From NCBI GenBank assembly GCA_043228905.1, contig JBHGNT010000004.1, positions 23,002,001 to 23,066,000 on the forward strand: a stretch of DNA of 64,000 nt, in the 5' to 3' direction. How positions within the stretch are numbered: the stretch's first letter is position 1; each line of letters begins with the position of its first letter. The translations under genes and the position numbers were made by a program. Below are positions 19,166-34,900 of this stretch, in pieces. Below the pieces are notes generated by a model. It saw only the letters and a list, made by a program, of their open reading frames with translations, ran no database searches and had not been told where the DNA came from. The stretch comes from Azolla caroliniana. Lineage: Eukaryota; Plantae; Polypodiophyta.

Positions 19166-19542
19166 CTTAAACAAGAAGTTGTATATAGGTGAAAAAATTG
19201 AATACATCCAATAGTGACTAAGTTACAAAAGGTGGGTTTAAATACGGTCAACTAGTGTAGGGAAACTGCCCTTTCTACTGTTTACAAAACTAACCTAGTA
19301 TGTCCTCTAGCTAGTGTGCAACCATTTCATTCTCAACATGCCCCTTCGAACACAACTTCTTGGTGCCGAAAAGTTGGTTCGGTTTGATCATCGATTTAGT
19401 TGAATCGGCTTTCGGAAGGTCAGTCGACACAACTTGATTATCATCGTATTTTGATTCCTCTAGTTTTGATCGACTAATCAGTGGTTGTTCGGCATCGACG
19501 ACTACTACTGTTTTTCGGTGCTCCCCCTCAAGCGCAACGGGT
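19131..19542 (-). repeat. Copia-3 3' LTR segment (19131-19338) plus PPT and 3' UTR; 19249-19542 duplicates 32335-32632
   Basis: Aligns with 5' LTR 37234-37464 and with 32335-32632 (about 6 substitutions and a 4-bp indel). Confidence 0.9.
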
Positions 19543-20411
19543 ATTGTTTGTCAACAGAGTCACCATATTCGATTGAAGAATATTGTCTGTCGACCGACTC
19601 ACCATATTCTATCGAAGAATATTGTCTGAGCTCATCTACAGGGAATGTAAATAATGACACATGTGAAGAGTTCTCTATTGAAGAATACGATATTAATAAA
19701 GATACCGAGAATGAAGGAAGTGCCCAGGAAACATTGAATAACATTGGCGATGGTCACAACAGAGAATTAGACTGTAACAAGGTTACACCAACCTCTATGC
19801 AGGAAGAGAAATCTGGGAGCCCTATGCATATTAGAAGAATCCCACGAAGAATTCGTCTGGCTAGATTTAGCTTGGTGACATCAAATAAACAGATTGGATT
19901 TGATGTCAACAAAATATGTTGTGCCCGTGGTTGTATGTCTATGATTGGAAAATCAAAGTTGCGAGAATTAAGGCGATACTATTTTTCGATGACCGGTGAT
20001 GAGCAAGACACTTACCTCGGGTCACATATGCAACTAGTATCTGACAAATGTACGGGGATCAAAGTATCATTCGAGTATTATATCTTCCATGCGCAACAGA
20101 TATGTAGAGTTGCATTCAAAATTGCGTTATGTGTTAGTAACATGCGGCTACATAGAGTACAACAACGTCTACTTAGTGGGGATCAGATGCTCAATTGTAA
20201 AGAGGTTCCAAGTATGAAAGGTGCAATTGGAAGACTAGCTATTGGCTGGATGAAAACTTACTTTCAGTTAAATTGTGAAGTAATGCCCACTACAGGTAGG
20301 ATGCATCTTTCTGATAATTATACACGTCGGGAAGTTTATGATGTCTATCGATCTGATATGCTGGGCTCACGTAATAAGTCTATCACCTATAGCCAATTCA
20401 CAAGATTATGG
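19542..20411 (+). pseudogene. Sola1-like transposase, N-terminal part
   Basis: YCLSTxSPYSIEE repeats, CCARGC, QICRVAF, CEVMP, ends YSQFTRLW at the TSD. Confidence 0.85.
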
Positions 20412-20437
20412 GGGTCGAAGCACGCTACGGTGTACCA
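20412..20437 (+). repeat. Left TIR
   Basis: Reverse complement of 30105-30130. Confidence 0.95.
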
Positions 20438-20956
20438 GAAAAGTACTGTTTTTGGCCACAAAAATTGTCAGTACTTTCAATACTGTTAGTACTGAATAAT
20501 TCAGAAAAAAAATTAGAGAAAAAGAAAATCGATTTTGGAGAGTGGGGTGACTGTAGTACAAGTGTCATTTACTGTAGAAGGAGTGGGGGGAACACGTGAG
20601 GAGATGTTCTTCCATTTTGGGGGCTATTTTCCCCTCACGTCGATTTTGGCGCTTCCCCTCACGTCGTTTTGGCGATTCCCCTCATACTGTTCTTCCTCTA
20701 TCCCTCTGAGCTTTTCATCACAGACATCCATGTCACGTTTCTGATTTTCCTTCAATCTAAATCTCAGACATCCATGTCTGGTTGGAGAGTTTGAGTTGAG
20801 GATTTCTGATTTTTTTAGGGTTTCTGTTTTTGTTAGGTTTCGGTTGAGGTACAAAGACTGTTCTGAGGGTTTAGGTAGCAGCCAATAGTCACTTCTTCGA
20901 CAACGACTTTCGTACTTCCACCGATTGCAGTTGATGTCGTGGTGATTTGGGGCTTT

Positions 20957-21150
20957 TTCCACCAAATCGAGGCGGCATTGGAGGTTCCTTCCACCAAATC
21001 GAGGCGGCATATCCAACGCTCCCTCCACCATTGGAGGTTCCTTCCACCAAATCGAGGCTGCATATCCACGCTCCCTCCACCATTGGAGGTTCCTTCCACC
21101 AAATCGAGGCGGCATATCCAACGCTCCCTCCACCATTGGAGGTTCCTTCC
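20957..21150. repeat. Tandem array of 52-53-bp units (about 3.5 copies)
   Basis: TTCCACCAAATCGAGGCGGCATATCCAACGCTCCCTCCACCATTGGAGGTTCC. Confidence 0.9.
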
Positions 21151-21752
21151 ATCCATTTTTTTTTTTTCAATACTAAAATGTTTCATTTCTTCATATTTCA
21201 GTACTAAATTTTTAGAATTGACATTTGCCATATTTGATATGTAATTCTAATGTTTGAAACAAAATATTTCTCACTTTGCAGGCCACATTTAAAAACATTT
21301 GATTGTGTTTTCTTGGTTGAGTCTATATATCCACGCTCCCTCCACCATTGGAGGTTCCTTCCATCCATTTTTTTATTTTCAGTACTAAAATGTTTCATTT
21401 CTTCATATTTCAGTACTAAATTTTTAGAATTGACATTTGCCATATTTGATATGTAATTCTAATGTTTGAAACAAAATATTTCTCACTTTACAGGCCACAT
21501 TTAAAAACATTTGATTGTGTTTTCTTGGTTGAGTCTATATATCCACGCTCCCTCCACCATTGGAGGTTCCTTCCATCCATTTTTTTTATTTTCAGTACTA
21601 AAATGTTTCATTTCTTCATATTTCAGTACTAAATTTTTAGAATTGACATTTGTCATATTTGATATGTAATTCTAATGTTTGAAACAAAATATTTCTCACT
21701 TTGCAAGCCACATTTAAAAACATTTGATTGTGTTTTCTTGGTTGAGTCTATA
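21114..21752. repeat. Tandem array of three 212-213-bp units
   Basis: GTAATTCTAATGTTTGAAAC recurs at 21241, 21453, 21666. Confidence 0.92.
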
Positions 21753-21808
21753 TAACATTAACTACTTTCGCAAGACACTTAATTTTTGTGGATAAATCTA
21801 GTGACCGA

Positions 21809-23456
21809 ATGGGGGTTCCTAACGAGAGTGAGTTGTCAAGTAACTCATGCATATCTGAAAGGACTAAGAGACGAGTGGTTCTTCACATAGTCCGTTATTT
21901 GGTAGAAATAACGAAGAGATTTAGTGAAGAGGATTGTAGGGATATTATCTGTAGAGTGTTACACCATCAAAGTTTGAATGAAGACATGGAGAGAATAAAA
22001 TTTAGGGACCAATGTGTTTCAGAAGAGATTGTGGAGTCTATGAAGTCATCCCTAGACTTAGTGAAAGGTGTAGAGAGCTTAGACAAACTTGTTGCAAAGA
22101 GGGCAGCCCTACACATGGTTGTGAACGGTGCGAGAGAAAAAAAATATAGTGATACTAAAGTTGCCTTAGCCCTGGGTATTCAAAGAAGGAACTTGAGGAA
22201 ACATCGCCGAAATATACACTCAAGCAAATTCAAGTGGCTGGGGTCGGGACGTAGATGACGATGTGATGCCTTATCTCAAGAGATTATTGAGAAAGTGGAT
22301 TCATTTTGGGCCAAAAATACGCGTGTCTCACCAAATAAGAAGGACGTGTGTAGACAACGAATAAGTCAGGGTAAGTACCAGATTCACCCTAGACACTTCT
22401 TGGAGATGACAGAGGTATTCCATTTTTTTATATCAATTCACATTCCATAACTTTGTGTTTTGACCAAGTGTATATTAATGTTTGCTATATATATTGGTTG
22501 ATGTAGGCTGAATTGTACATGAACTTTAAAGACCAACATCCAAGCTTGACTATCGGATTCCGCAAGTTCCAAGGTTTGAAACCATTTTATGTTAGAAAAT
22601 TAAATGAGAGGAATACATGTTGTTGTGTGTACCATGTGAAGATGAACATGTTAAGGCTAGCAGTGAATGCAATGCGTACTGATTCTAAGGGTATACATGG
22701 GGAATTATGTGTCTGCACTTGTGAGATTTGTAGACCAAATGGGGAGGATAGTAGGTGTAATGCACGAAACATGACTTATGCATCCGTTTCTGAGCTATGG
22801 AGGTCTTGTGTTTGTGAAAAAGAACCATCATGTGAGTGGCATCGTCGTACATGTCTATTAAGAACATGTAAGGTTTGTCCGCTACCATTATTTTGTAGGC
22901 AGGAGCTTGATATGGGAAATAGTCATATCGTGAAATGGAAATATTTGGAGTATGTGACTGAAAATATTGGCAAGGGAGTTGTAACTAAGCGTATCAAGGA
23001 AGTATATAAGGAGACATGTGATGCTACCCTTGTCTCAGAATTTAAGAAACAACTTGGGGAGTTTATTCCACATAACTTCAGGAGTTATTGGCAAAATTCA
23101 CAGTTCAAGGAATGTATTAATAACTTACCAACGGGTGTCATTGTATCCGTTATTGATTTTGCAGAAAACTATACATTTAAAGTTCAAAATGAGGTTCAAT
23201 CAATGCATTGGTACAATGATCAATGTACAATACTTGTACATATTTGCTATTGGAGGCAAGACGGTGAGTTACATAAGAAATCAATATTTTACATTTCAGA
23301 TGATAAAAAGCATGATACACTATTTGTTCAACATTGTTTTAAGCTTCACCATGCAGATTTATTTTCTCTAGGGTTAACCTTTAACCGTCATTGGGTTTGG
23401 TCGGATGGTGCTGCCTCGCAGTTTAAGGCGGCACGATCGTTCTACTTTATCGCCAG
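21809..23456 (+). pseudogene. Sola2-type transposase, intron-containing (exons ~21809-22414, 22507-23456), one nonsense codon, 3' exon not found
   Basis: SPNKKD, ELYxxFKxxHP..IG..KF..LKP, CCCVYH, VIDFAENY..QNEVQSMHW, FYISDDKKHD, WSDGAASQFK; GT-AG intron 22415-22506; TGA 22256-22258; donor at 23457 with no HGK..DG exon seen downstream. Confidence 0.85.
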
Positions 23457-24088
23457 GTAATTTTTAATCCATATGTTTAGTACTTATCATGCAATGTGTA
23501 AGGAAGTAAATCTTGTGTTAGTGGATGCATACTAATTATGTTTGTAACTATTAACAAACAGTACTAGTCACATCGATGCATACTAATTATGTTTCTAACT
23601 ATTCGAATCTTGCACTTGTGAATGGATGCATGCATACTAATTTTGTTTGTATTATGTTGTACTAAGTAACTTTTAATCCATGTGAAGTGTTCTTCAATAA
23701 CACCCGATACCCGATATTTTCTGTTTCTCATCATCAACACCTAAAAACCTAAATTTTCCTAGCAAGCTAAGAAGACTTTTTCAAGCATTTTATCTACAAT
23801 AGATTGAAAGACTTTGCGAGGATTAGGAGATGATCTCAAAAAAGAAACAAAACGTTGTAAAATAAGAATACTTAGATCAAAAAGTATATTCCCATTGTTT
23901 TTTATATATGTTGATGAGCAAAATATAGAAGCAATCCTTAAACATGAACTTGATTTCACACTTGTATAACTATTTCAGATTCATGAACTGGATTTTTTAC
24001 ATTGGCAATTGAAATAGTATTTTGGTATCCAAATAGTTCAATTTCAGACATCACTAACAACTAAAGTTCAAGTACAATCGAAAGACAA

Positions 24089-27000
24089 TCAGGCACTAGA
24101 GGGTAACTTGGCCGATCTTGTAATGCGCTTGTTGTTGGTGCCAGATTTTTCTGATTTTACATTCTTCTTTATCTTAAAGCCTTTAGGTATGAGCTGACTA
24201 AGTGGCACTTCATCATCAGAGGCATCAGAGACAGGCGTGGATGCGCAGGCACCTTGTACTGGTGGCAAGCTTGAGAGAGCAACTATGTTTTCTGCAACTG
24301 CAATGCTTGTACACAAATCCACAAAGGTGCTGTCGATAGACAAATTATCACTCATCTTCTGAATGCTTGTACTCCTAGCGATCTTTATTGCCCTATCATC
24401 ATCACCGATGCCTATACACTCGTTCTTATTAGACTCCTGTATGTGGACCGTGGCAGTAGTCATGGTCAACTCCTCTTGTACAATGGATGTCACCTCATTC
24501 TTAAGACAACGTTGTTCGCTCTGAGTACAATCAGGCCCACCTTCATTAGTAACGTTGTTCGCTCTACACTCCTCATGGGATTCTGTACAATCAGGCTTAT
24601 CTTCAGGGAAAGCGATGTTCTTTCCGCGATCCTCATGGGCTTCACAAGACACTACTAGCACATTCTCAGTACAATCAAGCTCCTCTTCATTACTAGCAAT
24701 GTTCTTTCCATGATCCTCATGGGAATCTTTAGATAGTACTAGCACGTTATCAGTACAATCAGTCTTCTCTTTAGCACTTGCCACATTATCAGTACAATCA
24801 ATCTTCTCTTCAGTACTTGCCATATTCTTTCCACACTCTTCATGGGCTTCAATCTTCTCTTCAGTACTTGCCATATTCTTTCCACACTCATAGGCTTCTT
24901 TAAACATAATGTTGTTTGTACATGCCAATTGCTCTTCACATATGAATGCTTCGTTTTTCTCACAATCCTCATGTGTGGAAGATGTGCTTCCAGAGTCTGC
25001 CTCCTTGCAAAGGTTAATTTGATTCTGACTCTGATGGGAATCTGATTCTGCACTTGTGCTCCATGAAGTTCCCGATTCATTTGATTGCAGTTGGGAATCA
25101 GACTGCTCTTGTAAACCTAATTAATGGGATTCCAAAGAATATTGGTATGAACTCACATACTCAAAAGTTTGCAAACAATGAACATAGGGTTTAGGGCCAC
25201 ATTTTTACCTAATGTTACATCGTCATACTGTACAACCGTAGATACCCCATTGCAAGTGGTGGGCTCGGTCATCTTCTCCACAACATCTAGGTGCTCAACA
25301 GTGTTGTTATGATCTATAATAACAACAAAAATAGGGTTGTTATGAGCTAAATCATTGTTTTCAAAGTCTGGCTTTTGACGTGTACCTGGGAGTGTGATAA
25401 ATTCGTCTTCATGATCAGGTTTTGGACTCGTATCTCCGTCACCAAATATCATTTCATCATCAGCTAGTAACACAAGTACATGGTATTAGACAATGGATTA
25501 GGTTGACAATGCTCCAGACAGGTGAGAACTTATATGACTCACCATTGCATTCAACTTTTCCTTTCTTGCCGTTTCCATACAACATTCTTGCAACATTTCT
25601 CTTCTTACTGGGCTCTATTTGTAAAGAAACTGCATTTCTCTTCTTAGTGGGCTCTATTTCTTGATGTTGACCGGAGCTTGGGGAATTTGTTTGTAGAAGC
25701 ATATGTTCCACTGCTCCAATGGCCCTTCTCATACATTCATCCTCATCATAAAAATCATAGGTTATTGGTAATGATGGTCCCTGAACCTTGGAATGTGCAG
25801 CAGATATTGAGGGTTTAGGCACAGGGGTTGGTTGTTCCATTACCTTCCCTGGCATGGAGTTGCTTGACACTACAACATTCATTGCAAGAAACAAAAAAAC
25901 CTTGAATGTTAGTACCATCATCTAAAATATATAATGTAGGTCACAAGAGCTGCTTCCCATTTTACACAATGTACCAATCATGAACAATGTACTACTCACA
26001 TAGTTCCTAAATTACTGAACTAGTACTAATAAGGAACACTGTACTGCTCACTTAGTTCCCAATTTACACGATTAGTACTAATCATGCACAATATACACAA
26101 GTAGTACTAATCATGCACAATATACTACTCACTTAGTTACCAAATTACACAAGTACTAATCCCGAAAAATGTACCACTGACTTAGTCAAATTAATAAGTA
26201 GTACTAATCTTGAACAATGTACTACTCACTTATTTCCTAAATCACTGAACTAGTACTAATCCCGAACAATGTACTGCTCACTTAGTTCCCAATTTACACA
26301 AGTAGTACTAATCATGCACAATATACTACTCACTTAGTTACCAAATTACACAAGGAGTACTAATCCCGAACAACGTAATGCTCACTTAGTTCCCAATTTA
26401 CACAAGTAGTACTAATCATGCACAATATACTACTCACTTAGTTACCAAATTACACAAGGAGTACTAATCCCGAACAATGTAATGCTCACTTAGTTCCCAA
26501 TTTACACAAGTAGTACTAATCATGCACAATATACTACTCACTTAGTTAGCAAATTACACAAGGAGTACTAATCCCGAACAATGTACCACTGACTTAGTCA
26601 AATTACACAATTAGTACTAATCCTGAACAATGTACTACTCAACAATGTACCACTGACTTAGTCAAATTACACAATTAGTACTAATCCTACAAAATGTACT
26701 ACTCACTTATTTTCTAGATTATTGATCTAGTACTAATAAGGTACAAAACTAGTACTAATAAGGAACAAAGTACTACTCAGTTCCCAAATTACAAAACTAG
26801 TATTAATCATGAGTAATGTACTGGTAACTTAGTTCACAAAGTACAGAACTAGTACTAATCATGAACCATGTAGTACTTACTAAGTACTAATCCAACAAAT
26901 GTAGATTGGTATTTTGCACACAAGTAATACTAAACATGATATGTCTTCTACACACCTAGTTACATAACTTGTACTAATTACACCAACAGTATTAATCTTG

Positions 27001-28747
27001 AACAGTATTAGTACTAACCGTGATATGTGTTTGACACACCTCATTTCCAAATTACAATAATTGTACTATTATTCAACAATTTACTATACACCTTGTTCCC
27101 AAATTACATTACTAGTACTAATTCCCAAGTTACACAAACAATCTTAACAGTCAACAGTGTACTATAAGTATAGTGTTTACTAAACTAATACTAGGCAAGT
27201 TGCAATATAGATTGGACGATGTTGTACCTGGTTCCCTTTTAGTACTACTAATTGTGGAAAATATCCCTTCAACTACACATACCAATTATATATTAAGAGT
27301 ACTGCCAATACTAACCCACATAATTAGGGTTCCACATAATAGTTGTTAGAGATTACACTAAATTTGAAGTATGAATTGTGGCATACACTAGTTCTAGTCC
27401 AAATGTTAATTGACATCATATAATACAAACAATAGAATAGTAGAGCCACATACCGTACGGGTGTACTTTTAAACCCCAAGCATAGTACCACTCAGCAGCA
27501 ATTGTAGTTTTACAGTCCATACATGTATTCTCTTTCTCAAAATGATACTTAGCACATAGCACATGATATGTGTGCAAGCATGGTGTAATCACAACATCCA
27601 TAGCCTCCAGCTTGAATCCGAGGCCACAAAATATACACCTGGAAGATTGCAAACACAAGTTATAATATATTAGTTGCTCACTTATTTATACCAGAGAAGT
27701 AGAAATAAATAACTTTTAAAGCCAATACCGTGATATAGCTATACTAATAATGGTACTTTCTATACCACTTGGGTGCTCAATTACAGATGGACACAAAGTA
27801 TCAAAACCATTTTGTTTTAAATCCTGCATCAAGCATGCAAGGTTCTCAGAATGCAACTTTAAGGCTGACAACTTATTATCTATTTCTTCATGTGCATTCC
27901 TGCAAGTATCAAGGTCTCTCATCTGTGAACCTAATTGAGTGCCCATATTGTTTAGCTCTTTCTTCAACTCCTCTTTCAACACCTCACTTTCTGAATTTTG
28001 GATTGTCGATGCAATCCATTCATATGTAGTTTTTATTGAAGAAAATTTCTTTTCTGCCTGTATCTCAGCTGATTTAACTGCTTCCAAATCAGCAAGTAGT
28101 GTTTGTATTCTTGAGCTCATAGAAGCTATGCAACCGGCCATCATCTGTTCATGCTTTTCAGTCATTGTGGCCCGTACCTTTGCCTCTAGAACTTGGTGGA
28201 TAGGTGTTATAGCTAGAATATCCACATGAGAGGTTCCAGATGACTTCAAGCCAGTGTTGGTACTGGAGGACCCTTTGTAATGTTCTGACCGGTGCCGATT
28301 AAAATCTTCCCAATTTACGTCAATGCCACCTTGAACTTCACATGCAAAAGCACGTGCAAAAACAGTACCCACCTCATTGTTAGTGATTTGATTTGTATCA
28401 TAAACATGTTCGTATCTCGTCTTCAATAAATTCATGTATTCCCTCTTCAAACCACTTATGTGGAATCCTCGCCTTGTGTCGGGATGTGCTGACCCCCAGG
28501 TTTTTAACAACCACTCTCTCAGCTCTGGATACACGTCAGGTCGTCCTCGAAGGAAATAATTCCATCCAAGAGGTGTGTCTCGACTGATGGAGTGGTACAT
28601 CTTCTTTCTCTGTGTTGATGAATTCATCACCCTTTCTCTTGTGGGTGTCTTCTTGCTTTCTTTCATGGGTGTCCTTCTTCCTTCCTTCACTGGTGTCTTC
28701 ACTTTCTCTTTCATCAATGTCTTCTTTATGGGTGTCCTTCTCGTCAT
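24089..28747 (-). CDS. Spliced accessory gene inside the Sola2-type element: TPxK repeats, coiled coil, RING-H2 finger, acidic repetitive tail (937 aa predicted)
   Basis: Exons 28747-27729, 27638-27454, 25869-25543, 25463-25209, 25116-24089; all GT-AG and phase compatible, 2814 nt without internal stop; CIFC-x15-CLHTYHVLC-x10-CMDC. Confidence 0.75.
25970..26900. repeat. AGTACT-rich minisatellite, 52-bp subunits in a 104-bp higher-order unit, in intron 2 of the accessory gene
   Basis: ACTAATCATGCACAATATACTACTCAC at 26307, 26411, 26515; degenerate at both flanks. Confidence 0.9.
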
Positions 28748-28814
28748 TGTCCTAGTCAACACAATTCTCAGGGAATGAATATGCATGTACTAGAAGAAAA
28801 CTCAAGCAATTACC

Positions 28815-29170
28815 ATCAACACATAGCAAATCATCACATTGCATGTACAAACCATGTCAAACACACAATAACCCTAAATAGTCGGAAAAAAACTCATCCA
28901 TGTCAAACACACAGACAATAAAAACAGACGGATAGGAAAGTCAAAGAAAACGAAAACATTGTAAATCATCATAGCCAACTCCATCACATCGCATGTACAA
29001 GCCATGTCAAACACACAAAAACCCAAAATAGTCGGAAAAACACTCATCCATGTCAAACTCACACAAAATAAAACAGATGGACAGGAAACAAGAACAAAAC
29101 GAAAACATAGCAACTCATCATAGCCAACTCCATTTACGTTGCATGTACAAACATGTCTAACACACAACCA
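28815..29170. repeat. ~150-bp tandem repeat (2-3 copies)
   Basis: CATCACAT.GCATGTACAA.CCATGTCAAA near 28832, 28982 and 29130. Confidence 0.8.
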
Positions 29171-30104
29171 CCTCGATCAAAATATTTTCATACATTTTTA
29201 AAAGAAACATAGAGAAACACAGAGAAAACAAAAACATACCAGTTGGGCATGCAACACATAGACTATGAATAATCAAACCCTAAAAATGACCATACACATG
29301 CAAATAAAAAACAGACAGACGGGAAACATTCAGAAAAAGAAAACATACCAGTTGGGCATGCAACACAGAGAATACCTGGAGGTCGTACAACTTGCAGAGG
29401 TACCACACCGTGTTGATTTCGACAAACGAGGCTGCTGTAGAGGAGACAAACGAGCATAGACCGAGGAAACAAACGAGCATACACAAGGAAGGAAAATCAA
29501 CAACACATACAACAAGCAGGGGAAACAAAAATCTCTGCGTTCAGAGATCGAACCTGGCATAGAGGGGAACACAAGAACAGCTACGCGGGGAAACAGAGAA
29601 TCGAAGGTGGAGTGAGAGAGAGAAACAGAAAGAAAGAAAGAAACAGAGCTTTGAAGGTGGAGTGAGAGAGAGAAAGAGAGAGATAGACCTGTAATAGATA
29701 TGTCGTCTTTCTTTAACTTTCTGCCACTGTCTGTCTGACAACTTCGAGACAGAAGAGAGAGAGAGAGAGAGAGAGAGTGAGTGAGTGAGTGAGAGAGAGA
29801 GACATACCAATTGACACGTTCGACTACCCATACCAGAGAGAGAGAGAGAGAGAGAGATACTGAGACTGACCAACTGTCACAATGGATACCTTCTCCAGGT
29901 GTGCTTTCGTACAACTCTACCTAGGAGACTGGGGCAACAATTAATGTATTAAATATGGCCTAGGGACATTTCGAGTGTGATGTACAATATCTTTGTGCAT
30001 TCGAGTGTGACGTAATGAGTTTGTTTTTTGTTTTTTGAAACTTATTTACAATTTTTAATGTTTATTTTCTTCTTCGATTTAGTACTAAATTTTTGGCCAA
30101 AAGT

Positions 30105-30130
30105 TGGTACACCGTAGCATGCTTCGACCC
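30105..30130 (-). repeat. Right TIR
   Basis: TGGTACACCGTAGCATGCTTCGACCC followed by TSD ATGG. Confidence 0.95.
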
Positions 30131-30134
30131 ATGG

Positions 30135-31973
30135 AGAGTTCGGTTTTCAAATGTTATTATTCCTCGTAAAGTACGTATGGGGTATTGCTCCATTTGTGCA
30201 AATCTTAAAAGTTTGGCTAAAGGTGCAAAGACATCAATGGAAAAGGATACGAGTAAGAAGTTACTACAAGAGCATCGTGAGGCACAATCCTTAGAACGAA
30301 GGAAGGCGATGCATCATAGAGAGAAGTGTTTGAAGAGGCCCGAACAATACATGTGCTTAATGATAGATGGCATGGACCAGAAGAAGACATGCTTGCCGCA
30401 TATGCGGAGGCTCCCCAAAGATGTCAATGATGAGTGCCTTGTTCAAATGCACTTGGTGGGATGCTTGGCTTATAATAGGTCTGTTCGACCTCACGTCTTC
30501 ATTACTTACCCCAATGTTCACAATGAACCTAACCTAACAGTTACAGTGATTCACCGAGTTTTGATGTCTTGGGGACAACCTTTCCCCCCTGTTCTATACA
30601 TTCAATTGGACAATACTGCTAGAGAGAACAAAAATTCAACTGTATTTGGCTATCTAAGTATGTTGGTCAACCTAGAATTGTTTAGGAAAGTGAAAGTCAA
30701 TTTCCTTTTGGTTGGCCACACACATGACCATATAGATCAGATGTTTAGCACATTCTCCAGACAGTTGTCTCGGCATGATGCTTTCACTTTACCTAAACTA
30801 TTTGATGTCATTTGTGATGCTTATACACCACGCCCAAAAGTGTTACACTTGAAGGAGGTATATGACTTTAAGAGATATATATTAGATGGGGGTGGTGGGA
30901 ATGTTAAAGTGCTTGCTCAGTTAAACAATATAAGTTTCAATCACATTTTTTTGATAAAGAAAAATGGAATAAGTGGTTCTACACTTTTGTATGCTAAACA
31001 ATATTCATCTTCTACAACATGGGAACCTGAAGGTGGTTGCTAGTTATTACTTTGTATGCCAAGTACAATTGTCCATGGAGCTAAGCAAATGCCAATTGAG
31101 AAGAAAGGACAGTTGCAGAGCGACTTGGTATCAGAACAAAAACGGTCATGGGTCCAAGCCTTAGAAGAAAAAAGAAAGCATATTGAGGCTGCCAAGAAAT
31201 ATGCCGCACAACAAGACACGTCATGGTGGGATGTATTTTATAGTGATCAGAAAGAAATTATAGACAATTGTGTATCTGTTGATAATTGGAATTTGGAAAC
31301 GCCATTCACATGGTCGCTGCAACATGATCGCGTAAATAGAAGTCCGGAGCAACTAGTAAATGCGATTAATGACAGCTTGGTCCATCCACAACAAAGAGAC
31401 ATTTATGTGGGACCAAGGATGATGAAAGCAGCCGAAGCTAGATGGCAAGGAAATTTGCAAGAGCTCACCGCAGGGATGTTGATTGCAACGCCGGCTGATG
31501 AGAACTCACATGGCCACCAATTTTGGGTTGGTAAAATTCTAGAAGTGCTAATGCATGAAATAGAAAACACGATCAAGTCTATAAATGTTCATTGGTACAA
31601 CACTAGAAGTGCAAATGCTTTTACAGGTAAGTATACATTGGAGATGATTGAATGCCAAACAAGAAGGGGAGGTAGGAAGAGGAAGTGAAACATTCGTAAC
31701 ACCTCGACCCTTGATATCGCTGATGTGGATATCATCGTGTACGACTTCACACTTACAAAAGCCGGACGATTAAGGAAGTCAACAATAGATATAATAAAAG
31801 AAAAATTACCAGGTCTACAAGGTGGCTCGAGTCAAAGGCAAACGAGATCTGCTACATATAATCTAGAGTTAAACCATTTGGTTTATGACGAAGATAATGC
31901 ACTGATTGGTACATCTGAGGATGATGAGGAGGAATCGTCATTGTATATTAGTTATAGTAGTGATTCTCCGTAA
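30135..31973 (+). pseudogene. Sola1-like/DUF7869-type transposase catalytic and C-terminal part, two nonsense codons
   Basis: CSIC, MIDGMDQKKTCLP, YIQLDNTARENKN, FLLVGHTHDHIDQMFS; ORFs 30093, 31056, 31725 in one frame separated by TAG 31041 and TGA 31686. Confidence 0.88.
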
Positions 31974-34900
31974 AGGAGTGATCATGAATGTATATTTGGC
32001 TATTAAGTGTAACTACATTCCGCTTGTAACAAATCGAGTAATATAAAATCATGTGTTTTGAATTCTTATGATTTCTAAAAAATCGTTTCTTATAAAATAA
32101 CATTGGTTGTAAAGTTTGTGATATAAATTGAGAATGTATGTTTTTGAAATTCGTCTTTTTTTAGTTACTTCTAAATCACGAAAATAGTGGATTTTTAACC
32201 TTTTTCATAGTATGTTTGAACTTGTATGATACTGGTATCAATGTGTTTTGTAAAATCATTGAAAAACCCCTAAAATTTCCCTTATCCTTCCATTTATGCG
32301 CGATCCTTCCACTTGTGAACGCGAACGTGTTTACCAACTAGTGTAGGGAAACTGCACTTTCTACTGTTTACAAAACTAACCTAGTATGTCCTCTAGCTAG
32401 TGTGCAACCATTTCATTCTCAACACGCCCCTTCGAACACAACTTCTTGGTGCCGAAAAGTTGGTTCGGTTTGATCATCAATTCAGTTGAATCGGCTTTCG
32501 GAAGGTCAGTCGACACAACTTGATTATCATTGTATTTTGATTCCTCTGGTTAGTTTTGATCGACTAATCAGTGGTTGTTCGGCATCGACAACTACTACTG
32601 TTTTTCGGTGCTCCCCCTCAAGCGCAACGGGTCGATGATGGAGAGACCAAGGTTCATCACGAACTGTCGCAGCTTGTCGATACCCAAGACTTTTGTGAAG
32701 ATGTCGGCCACGTGAAGATTTGTGTTGATGTGTTGTAAATTAACATCTCCAGCTCGAATGAAGTGATAGTGCACTTCGATATGCTTAGTCTGCGTGTGGA
32801 ACACACGGTTCCGAGCCAAGTAGATATTCTCAGGGATAGTACTAGAGGCAAGGAGAATTAGTATCATGATAGATATTGCTCATGTTCTCGTAGTATAGGA
32901 GAATCAGATCCTTGATGGGAACACCCAGATCCTTCGATATGCGCTTCAGCCAAAAGGCCTTGCATGCGGCGACTGTCGCGCCCCTGTATTCGGTCCTTGT
33001 GCTCAACAGTGCGATTGTCGGCTGCTTTTTTTTGCTCCAAGATATCGCTCCGATGTCGAGGGAGAAGACAAATCCGGATGTCGATCATCTATTGGCCTTA
33101 TAGCCAACCCAATACGCATCTGTGTACCCTTCAGGTCGAATTATCGTATCCGGCTTGTACATGATGCCGAAATCCATCGTCCCACGGACATACCTAAGTA
33201 CTCTCTTAGCACAATCGAGATGAACATTTTGAGGGTTCTACATGAACTGGCTAAGTAGACCGATCGAATAGCTGAGATCGGGTTGTGTGTTGGTTAGATA
33301 GATTAAGCAACCGATCAATTGACGATACTAAGTCGGCTCACAATTTTCCGTTCCCGAATCGGCATTGACCTTGAGATTTCGATCAAGAGGGGTACACACA
33401 GGTTTGCACTCAGTCATCTCAAACTTGTAGAGTAAGTTGAGAATGCAGTGCCATTGAGAGATCAATATCCCAACTGATGTCCGAATTACTTCGATACCGA
33501 GGAAGTAATGGACCTTGAAGTACTAAAAATTACAAGTAAAAGTTATCTGCCCCTAGGCTTACATCATAATGTCTTTCATTTCATTTCATTCATGTCTTTC
33601 ATTTCGAATCTACCGGATAAGAGTGATTTGACCATAGTAATGTCGGCAAGATCCTTTCCTCGGATGACGAGATCTTCCATGTACAGGATGATGACAATCG
33701 GGTTGGTTGACTCGTTTTTTATGTATAGGGAGTTGTTTGATTTCAACATTCAGAAGATGCCAAGTACATGGTTCTTGCTTGAGTCCATATAGGCTTCTTT
33801 AGTCGGCAAACTACTTTCAGTTGTTTGCTCAATTCGAACTCGGGTGGTTGAATCATGAAGACCTCCTCTTCTAATTCACCTTGTAGGAAGGCGTTCTTTA
33901 TGTCCATCTAGTGGAGGTGCCACCATTTTGCAGCTACGAGAGCAATGACTGCCCGAATAGTCGTCATTTTTGCTATCTGGGAAAAGGTCTCGTTGTAATC
34001 GACTCTGTGCGTTTGGGCATATCCCTTCGCTACGAGTCAGGCCTTGAAGCAATTTAACGAGCTGTCAACATTATATTTTACTTTATATATCCACGTACAA
34101 CCGATCGCTTTCTTATGTGGAGAATGGGGGATGAGATCCCATGTCTTGTTTTTGCATAAAGCCTCCATTTCTTCATTCATGGCTTCAATCCATCGTGGAT
34201 CCTTGGATGCCTCAGAAAAGGTTTCTGGTTCTCAGACTGTCGCCACCTTCATCATAAAGGCATAATGATATGCCATATACTCATCTTAGCTGAATCGACT
34301 AACTCGGTTTTTCTCTCAAGTGGAGCGACGGAGCTTCTCGTTTGCAGAGACTAGGGCTTTCTTTGCTCCATTCATCCGGATGATTGGGATGTCAAGGCCT
34401 TCGAACTCATTGTCACAGGAGTGAGTTGACTTGTTGTTGATCCGATCTTCGTATTCTGGCATTTTGGCCTTCCTTTTGTTGACCTTCAGACTCGGCCAAG
34501 ATGTGCTTTGATCACTCGAGGGCTCTTGTGGTCCACTCAGCCTTTTTGTAATCAGACTTTCTTCGAACATGTGCCTCAGTCAATCTTCATCTTCTATCTT
34601 TCATTTGGCGGAATCCGGATCGACTAGGCTCGGACTCGAAATCATCTCCGGTTCGTACCAGGATGCTAACTCATCGAATATGATGTCTCGACTCACCCAA
34701 ACTTCGTGGGTGGTTGGATTGTAACATTTGTGCCCCTTTTGTTCGGGTGAGTACCCTACGAGGATACATTTCTCCGAGTTCAGGTCGAGCTTTTGTCTCT
34801 TCTCGTTGGGAATATGCACATAGGCGATTGAGCCTAATATCCGGATATGTGATAGATCCGGCCTCTTTCCGAAAAACTTCTCATGAGGGGTTACGTCGTG

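Follow-up and report, generated by a model that had tools for sequence, protein, structure and literature searches.

Does the RING-finger gene at positions 24,089 to 28,747 of a stretch of the Azolla caroliniana genome belong to the transposon in which it lies, or was it captured once from the host, and what might its protein do there? We address these questions for the window, the whole 64,000-nucleotide stretch that was analysed (contig JBHGNT010000004.1 of assembly GCA_043228905.1, forward-strand positions 23,002,001 to 23,066,000), where a preliminary description had placed a five-exon gene inside a Sola2-type DNA transposon. The window element belongs, as a copy that is not autonomous, to a Sola2 family with two genes and many copies, and the RING gene is very probably a dedicated gene of this element, not a one-off capture. 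Coordinates of the features are collected in Table 1.

A two-gene Sola2 family

The element (20412-30130, 9,719 bp) is bounded by 26-bp terminal inverted repeats (TIRs) and by a 4-bp target-site duplication (TSD). The two TIRs agree at 25 of 26 letters, and no further TIR match with up to seven mismatches occurs elsewhere within the window. The termini of the element read GGG..CCC; Sola2 termini are reportedly 5'-GRG..CYC-3'. A 4-bp TSD is given for Sola elements in excerpts of two papers (PMC10741241, PMC3627910). All five exons of the RING gene lie between the TIRs, and the exon structure first proposed was reproduced on recomputation: joined across four introns of 90, 1584, 79 and 92 nt, every one GT..AG, the exons form a frame of 2,814 nt that encodes 937 amino acids and a single terminal stop. 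Chance as the origin of the frame was rejected—exon 5 lies in an open frame of 343 codons, whereas shuffling the element 200 times produced no frame longer than 226.

Table 1. Features of the window that bear on the RING gene and its element.
Feature	Positions	Strand	Length, basis or remark
Exon 1: basic TPxK tail, unnamed helical domain (amino acids 50-157), coiled-coil hairpin (197-313)	27729..28747	-	1019 nt
Exon 2: C3H2C3 RING finger	27454..27638	-	185 nt
Intron 2: 52-bp tandem array with 24 AGTACT	25870..27453	-	1584 nt
Exon 3: YDEDEC motif, two EPxKKRN	25543..25869	-	327 nt
Exon 4	25209..25463	-	255 nt; open, splice sites conserved in L003
Exon 5: acidic repetitive tail, stop	24089..25116	-	1028 nt
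Left TSD, ATGG	20408..20411		flank comparison
Left TIR, 26 bp	20412..20437	+	inverted repeat; X3 sibling contig begins matching exactly at 20412
Right TIR, 26 bp	30105..30130	-	inverted repeat
Right TSD, ATGG	30131..30134		flank comparison
Three subterminal AGTACT	20442..20493		motif count
212-bp tandem repeat x3, with 5 AGTACT	21114..21754		repeat and motif count
Right subterminal AGTACT	30081..30086		motif count
Transposase N-terminal exon	21809..22414	+	ATG placed by eye; premature TGA 22256-22258
Transposase intron, GT..AG	22415..22506	+	92 nt; 7 spliced X6 reads, related transposase
Sola2-type core exon (DFAENY, SDD..HD, SDG..SQFK), first two catalytic Asp	22507..23456	+	motif alignment
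Internal deletion zone, C-terminal half of transposase removed	23693..23755		loose ends 23693 and 23709; X3 sibling contig
Interrupted Sola1-type transposase frame, 5' part	19470..20411	+	open reading frame
Interrupted Sola1-type transposase, 3' part, DUF7869	30135..31043	+	PF25273, E 1.5e-51

The other gene of the element is the transposase, which runs on the plus strand, convergent with the RING gene, and its earlier assignment to Sola2 stands; around the first two catalytic Asp residues each of its motifs agrees, when compared by eye, with the Sola2 alignment in print. The window copy is dead, with one stop and its C-terminal half deleted. No HGK or DG.G motif of the third catalytic region (HGK..DG.G) is present on its plus strand; this region is kept in 10 of 12 aligned transposase relatives, and the remaining two end earlier. 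A sibling copy is seen in run X3, in which 28 of the 30 bins across 20250-29500 are covered: one contig spans the stretch between exon 5 and 23755 and continues through 671 letters absent from the window, and the sibling sequence has C at 22256, that is, no premature stop. The picture of an intact cargo beside a dead transposase therefore describes the window copy and does not extend to this sibling or to three related cargo copies that contain stops, and we rejected intactness as proof of selection after insertion. The nearest cluster of the transposase contains 59 sequences at about 90% identity. Its close relatives P0174 and P0176 come from the alga Klebsormidium, which may point to a long history of this Sola2 branch among green plants.

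That the gene travels with the transposase is supported by the X3 contig, which joins exon 5 to the transposase-side end and, together with the multicopy nature of the RING gene, upholds the two-gene composition of the element; gene models from the fern Adiantum, where the two are not adjacent, do not support it. An X3 contig matching 20412-20986 has 81 further letters, which by the orientation of the match lie outside the TIR and would mark a different insertion site. For P0194 (exon 1) and P0212 (transposase), the longest contig is 12,129 in both cases—a circumstantial agreement that suggests one contig with both genes. A 96%-identical copy of the gene (L001, position 3283) loses homology at window 27820, ahead of the RING exon, and continues into unrelated DNA.

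Relatives of the RING gene are numerous. Compared with the database, exon 1 falls among eight clusters at 96, 90, 62, 60, 60, 60, 37 and 36% identity; the closest holds 31 members at about 90% identity or more, and a further 14 listed members are open and 94-98% identical. A family profile search returned 42 representatives, with relatives down to 21% identity. An organism was named for 5 of the 24 family proteins looked up, and all five are hypothetical partial models from five loci of Adiantum nelumboides, so the family is likely one of ferns. In the fern model P0016 the coiled coil is fused to the RING at the same point as window junction 1, and P0037, at 21% identity, holds the helical domain, coiled coil and RING within a single frame of 405 amino acids. 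In the 60% subfamilies, the majority of genomic frames end just past exon 1. Exon 3 aligns with fern model P0017 better than 500 of 500 shuffles; the similarity of exons 4 and 5 to fern models was not above shuffles. No longer homologue of exon 1 was found among 7,986 candidates, a weak search, and neither this search nor the 42 representatives contained an identifiable single-copy host donor. Relatives of either protein were not found in viral contigs, and an Atlas query with P0003 gave no usable match.

The copies can also be asked about constraint. A metagenome scan gave seven short loci (L001-L007), none of which extends to a TIR or transposase, and six were used for the ratio of nonsynonymous to synonymous substitution rates (dN/dS), L007 being excluded at 17 residues. 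Values between the window gene and the six loci are 0.23, 0.39, 0.66, 0.40, 0.41 and 0.45, and for five of the loci synonymous changes are in excess (p<0.01). In this comparison among copies, which the preliminary description had suggested, most copies tested show purifying selection. In L003, 7 of 7 covered splice dinucleotides are intact, and the sibling exon 5 differs by a net insertion of 51 nt that stays in frame. Multicopy, dispersed, conserved and expressed in relatives, the RING gene is not the single-copy host gene that the preliminary description had named as the alternative.

Expression was followed in the stranded polyA runs X4, X5 and X6, of which about 12 in 100 reads of each run were read under the usual first-mate convention. 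All three contain sense-direction reads for both genes; in X4, 91 of 97 reads are less than 95% identical to the window. Seventeen X4 reads diverge from the window at 27639, where their letters (by eye) match the last part of exon 1 in P0006, a paralogue of about 60% identity; in this relative, then, junction 1 is spliced. Read support for the splicing of the RING gene is thus confined to junction 1 in a paralogue; the four junctions proposed earlier gain the first in that form, and no reads span junctions 2-4. None of the listed datasets that contain the stretch is on record as RNA. RNA reads on the minus strand fall between 23640 and 23952, where a contig also has a loose end of adapter plus T at 23839; the 3' end of the RING gene may therefore lie toward or over the 3' region of the transposase, and the convergent transcripts may overlap. 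X6 is richer in transposase-like reads (21795-23339) and X4 in RING-gene-like reads (27357-28592), depth being a poor measure here, and the conditions under which these related genes are expressed may differ.

Protein architecture and a candidate target motif

The motifs that had been listed for the protein are all present: TPIK, TPVK, TPMK, TPTR, ARAFACEVQGGIDVNW, EPTKKRN, EPSKKRN and a C3H2C3 finger with the spacing C-x2-C-x15-C-x-H-x2-H-x2-C-x10-C-x2-C. The same C3H2C3 spacing recurs in P0037 and P0051, and in P0016 with a wider last spacing; P0037 clears the Pfam family zf-RING_11 (27.3 against a cut-off of 27). We modelled the exon-1 protein with AlphaFold2 from an alignment of nine sequences. 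In this model the basic tail (1-48) is disordered, the helical block at about 50-157 is folded with a predicted local distance difference test score (pLDDT) of 73-90, and the coiled coil of the earlier account appears as a helical hairpin of 117 amino acids at 197-313. Fold searches with the model returned generic coiled coils only, and a sequence search of the PDB gave a best E of 0.004, chiefly coiled-coil matches. In isolation domain 50-157 folds poorly (pLDDT 45); its best fold match had Z 6.0, a root-mean-square deviation of 3.3 and 80 aligned residues, with several winged-helix chains at Z 3.3-4.5, and we trust none of these.

Motifs of the form S/T-P-x-K/R are conserved in 9 of 10 relatives checked. 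This form is also a DNA-binding motif of histone H1 tails, and the motifs of the RING protein are compatible with sites for cyclin-dependent kinases or with H1-type DNA binding. TPxK as proof of cell-cycle control was rejected.

A candidate target for DNA binding by the protein is the palindrome AGTACT, which occurs 38 times, chiefly outside coding sequence, in the 9.7-kb element versus 21 times in the other 54 kb of the window; for TAGTACTA the counts are 18 and 1. Eight copies of AGTACT lie left of the transposase, three of them within 80 bp of the left TIR, followed by two in 23461-24088 and three in the region of exons 3-5. Intron 2 holds 24, and a single copy lies 50 bp from the right end; there is none in 21746-23460 or in exons 1-2. 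The intron 2 array has a period of 52 bp and is retained in L002, L003 and L005. Over 35 units of the window and L002, conservation of the AGTACT core is 0.93 versus 0.75 for the remainder of the unit and 0.86 for the best other hexamer, with ungapped picking of units perhaps favouring the core. The observed/expected ratio of CpG is 0.24-0.62 across the element versus 0.92-1.11 in its flanks, with the minimum in the array intron.

Possible roles of the RING protein

We propose, tentatively and with a little less than even confidence, that the RING protein binds the AGTACT arrays of its own element, ubiquitinates host factors nearby and keeps the element expressed. The KKRN motifs would bring the protein into the nucleus, where the basic TPxK tail and the unnamed helical domain would contact DNA; the coiled coil may pair two copies to read the palindrome, and the RING would recruit a ubiquitin-conjugating enzyme (E2) for the ubiquitination of nearby chromatin or silencing proteins. 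The outcome would be anti-silencing as for VANC, with the element remaining expressed. A more specific form—a fern Sola2 lineage with its own sequence-targeted ubiquitin ligase, in which a new DNA-binding domain would sit on the palindrome arrays and the RING would remove or modify silencing factors—is in our view doubtful.

Several observations count against these proposals. The window RING scores 24.3 bits against Pfam zf-RING_2 (E 3.7e-5), under the gathering cut-off of 27.3, and is without the Trp and Pro that E2-binding RINGs usually carry, so ubiquitin ligase (E3) activity is a candidate only. Domain 50-157 has no net charge (14 Lys and Arg, 14 Asp and Glu), and neither fold nor sequence searches recognised a DNA-binding fold in the protein. 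The low CpG of the element gives no sign of escape from CG methylation; tandem copying inflates the number of AGTACT in the array; and the binder of AGTACT could be the transposase. Most RNA reads are so unlike the window (less than 95%) that they derive from paralogues, which need not lie in an element. L003, the longest comparison, has no significant constraint (dN/dS 0.66, p 0.19), and four stops common to L002, L004 and L005 mark these three as one dead lineage. Finally, two Adiantum models that bear a transposase adjoin none of the five Adiantum models of the RING family.

The neutral domain and the failure of the searches to recognise a DNA-binding fold would suit an element-encoded E3 or zinc scaffold that acts on a host protein and does not bind element DNA. 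The palindromes would then either serve the transposase as sites or have arisen as a by-product when the repeats were duplicated in tandem; any word inside a tandem array is multiplied with it, and CpG depletion is not eased at the array. We consider this reading unlikely: an intron of the gene itself holds the array, which copies at 12-15% divergence have retained, and the core is its best conserved part. Transposition cofactors offer another model, represented by TnpA of En/Spm and the Myb-like ORF1 of PIF/Harbinger. A RING protein of this kind would bind the subterminal palindromes and bring in the transposase, with the RING controlling transposase turnover; the AGTACT copies close to both ends (three within 80 bp on the left, one within 50 bp on the right) fit such a role, as do the retention of the gene with the family and the cooperation of RING and transposase described for Chapaev and RAG1 in excerpts of one paper (PMC4411706). 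However, 24 of the 38 copies of AGTACT are internal to the element, in an intron at a distance of 3-6 kb from its ends, and the excerpts of the Sola literature name no required partner, which leaves a cofactor role rather improbable.

A further reading is a single capture of a host gene that has since been a passive load (Pack-type), or else a family that has become domesticated; in either case the gene would have no role for the element. The paralogous origin of the expressed copies points in this direction, as does the separation of RING-family and transposase models in Adiantum, and the sequences compared contain no full-length second element. The five named relatives, on the other hand, are hypothetical partial models, all from a single fern in which they occupy five loci. 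Copies of the gene are scattered and many are broken, element copies show constraint when compared with one another, and there are several subfamilies at 60% and 36% identity. We judge capture or domestication very unlikely, and return to the binding of AGTACT arrays by the RING protein as the preferred proposal.

Genomic setting, known systems and significance

The Sola2 element interrupts the frame of another transposase, with DUF7869, which we take to be Sola1-type. The outer gene (region 19470-31970) has additional stops at about 31043 and about 31688. In place of a short TSD, its element has on either side one copy of a 298-bp direct duplication (19249-19542 and 32335-32632, 96.6% identical), which is Copia-like sequence of long terminal repeat (LTR) ends. 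The nesting order is Sola2 inside the Sola1-type transposase, and the latter amid nested LTR retroelements. Three long direct-repeat pairs, 96.6-99.6% identical (9448-10282/15944-16779, 37802-38882/44662-45742 and 48503-49188/53212-53897), are likely the LTRs of young retrotransposons.

Viral RING transactivators such as ICP0 and the baculovirus IE2 and PE38 counter host repression, and IE2 and PE38 have a coiled coil; as parasite-encoded RING proteins they offer an analogy to the gene described here, but they are viral and belong to animal hosts. The layout of the AGTACT arrays resembles, by analogy, that of VANDAL and VANC in Arabidopsis. VANDALs are Mutator-like elements (MULEs), and Pfam scans, the comparison made here, gave no VANC family match for our proteins. 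According to excerpts of one paper, the motifs targeted by VANC are short and stand in tandem repeats of introns, intergenic and terminal regions, and binding and demethylation are demonstrated with the mechanism after binding left open (PMC5735166). Both systems have a second element gene and a tandem short motif in introns and terminal non-coding parts; in contrast to VANDAL, a RING is present here and DNA binding is predicted (PMC5735166).

Comparisons with other elements draw likewise on excerpts, as do the general features of Sola (PMC10741241, PMC9033089, PMC5751038). Published Sola2 elements share with ours the motifs F..L.P..C.C..H through DFAENY, HW..Q..H and SDD..HD to SDG..Q[YF]K, short TIRs, a 4-bp TSD and, in some members, a passenger beside a deleted transposase (PMC3627910). 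That passenger is Fanzor1, whereas here it is a spliced coiled-coil/RING gene; our TSD, ATGG, is not AT-rich, and an internal palindrome array is present (PMC3627910). Sola1-1_Ec32 of Ectocarpus is likewise a large Sola with an accessory gene opposite the transposase strand, a proposed action on its own DNA and a transposase that is often dead; it is a Sola1 with ParB and DNA methylase cargo, ours a Sola2 with a RING (PMC12477816). A 2015 paper reported RING in transposons for Chapaev and RAG1 and, in the excerpts, for no other known element (PMC4411706). In those systems the RING and a Transib-type transposase form one fused protein, here the RING belongs to a separate convergent gene; E3 activity is demonstrated for RAG1 and predicted in our case (PMC4411706).

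No Sola element with RING cargo was found in the literature searched, a scope outside which Bao et al. 2009 and the Repbase entries fall. The earlier statement that no such Sola cargo was known agrees with these searches; other Sola cargo is published, Fanzor1 for Sola2 and ParB-methylase for Sola1. Within this literature, a Sola2 layout is new in which the transposase is accompanied by a conserved accessory RING gene, dedicated to the element and of predicted function, and by a candidate AGTACT target motif.

Transposon-encoded counter-silencing has been proven for few elements. The passenger described here combines a RING module with a conserved domain that has no name yet and with a candidate word as its target; this makes for a directly testable mechanism, and would extend RING-bearing transposons beyond Chapaev and RAG1. 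The helical domain (amino acids 50-157), if a true sequence-specific reader, would be a new one; and the sequence-targeted ligase, if true, would be a transposon counterpart of viral anti-silencing of the ICP0 type.

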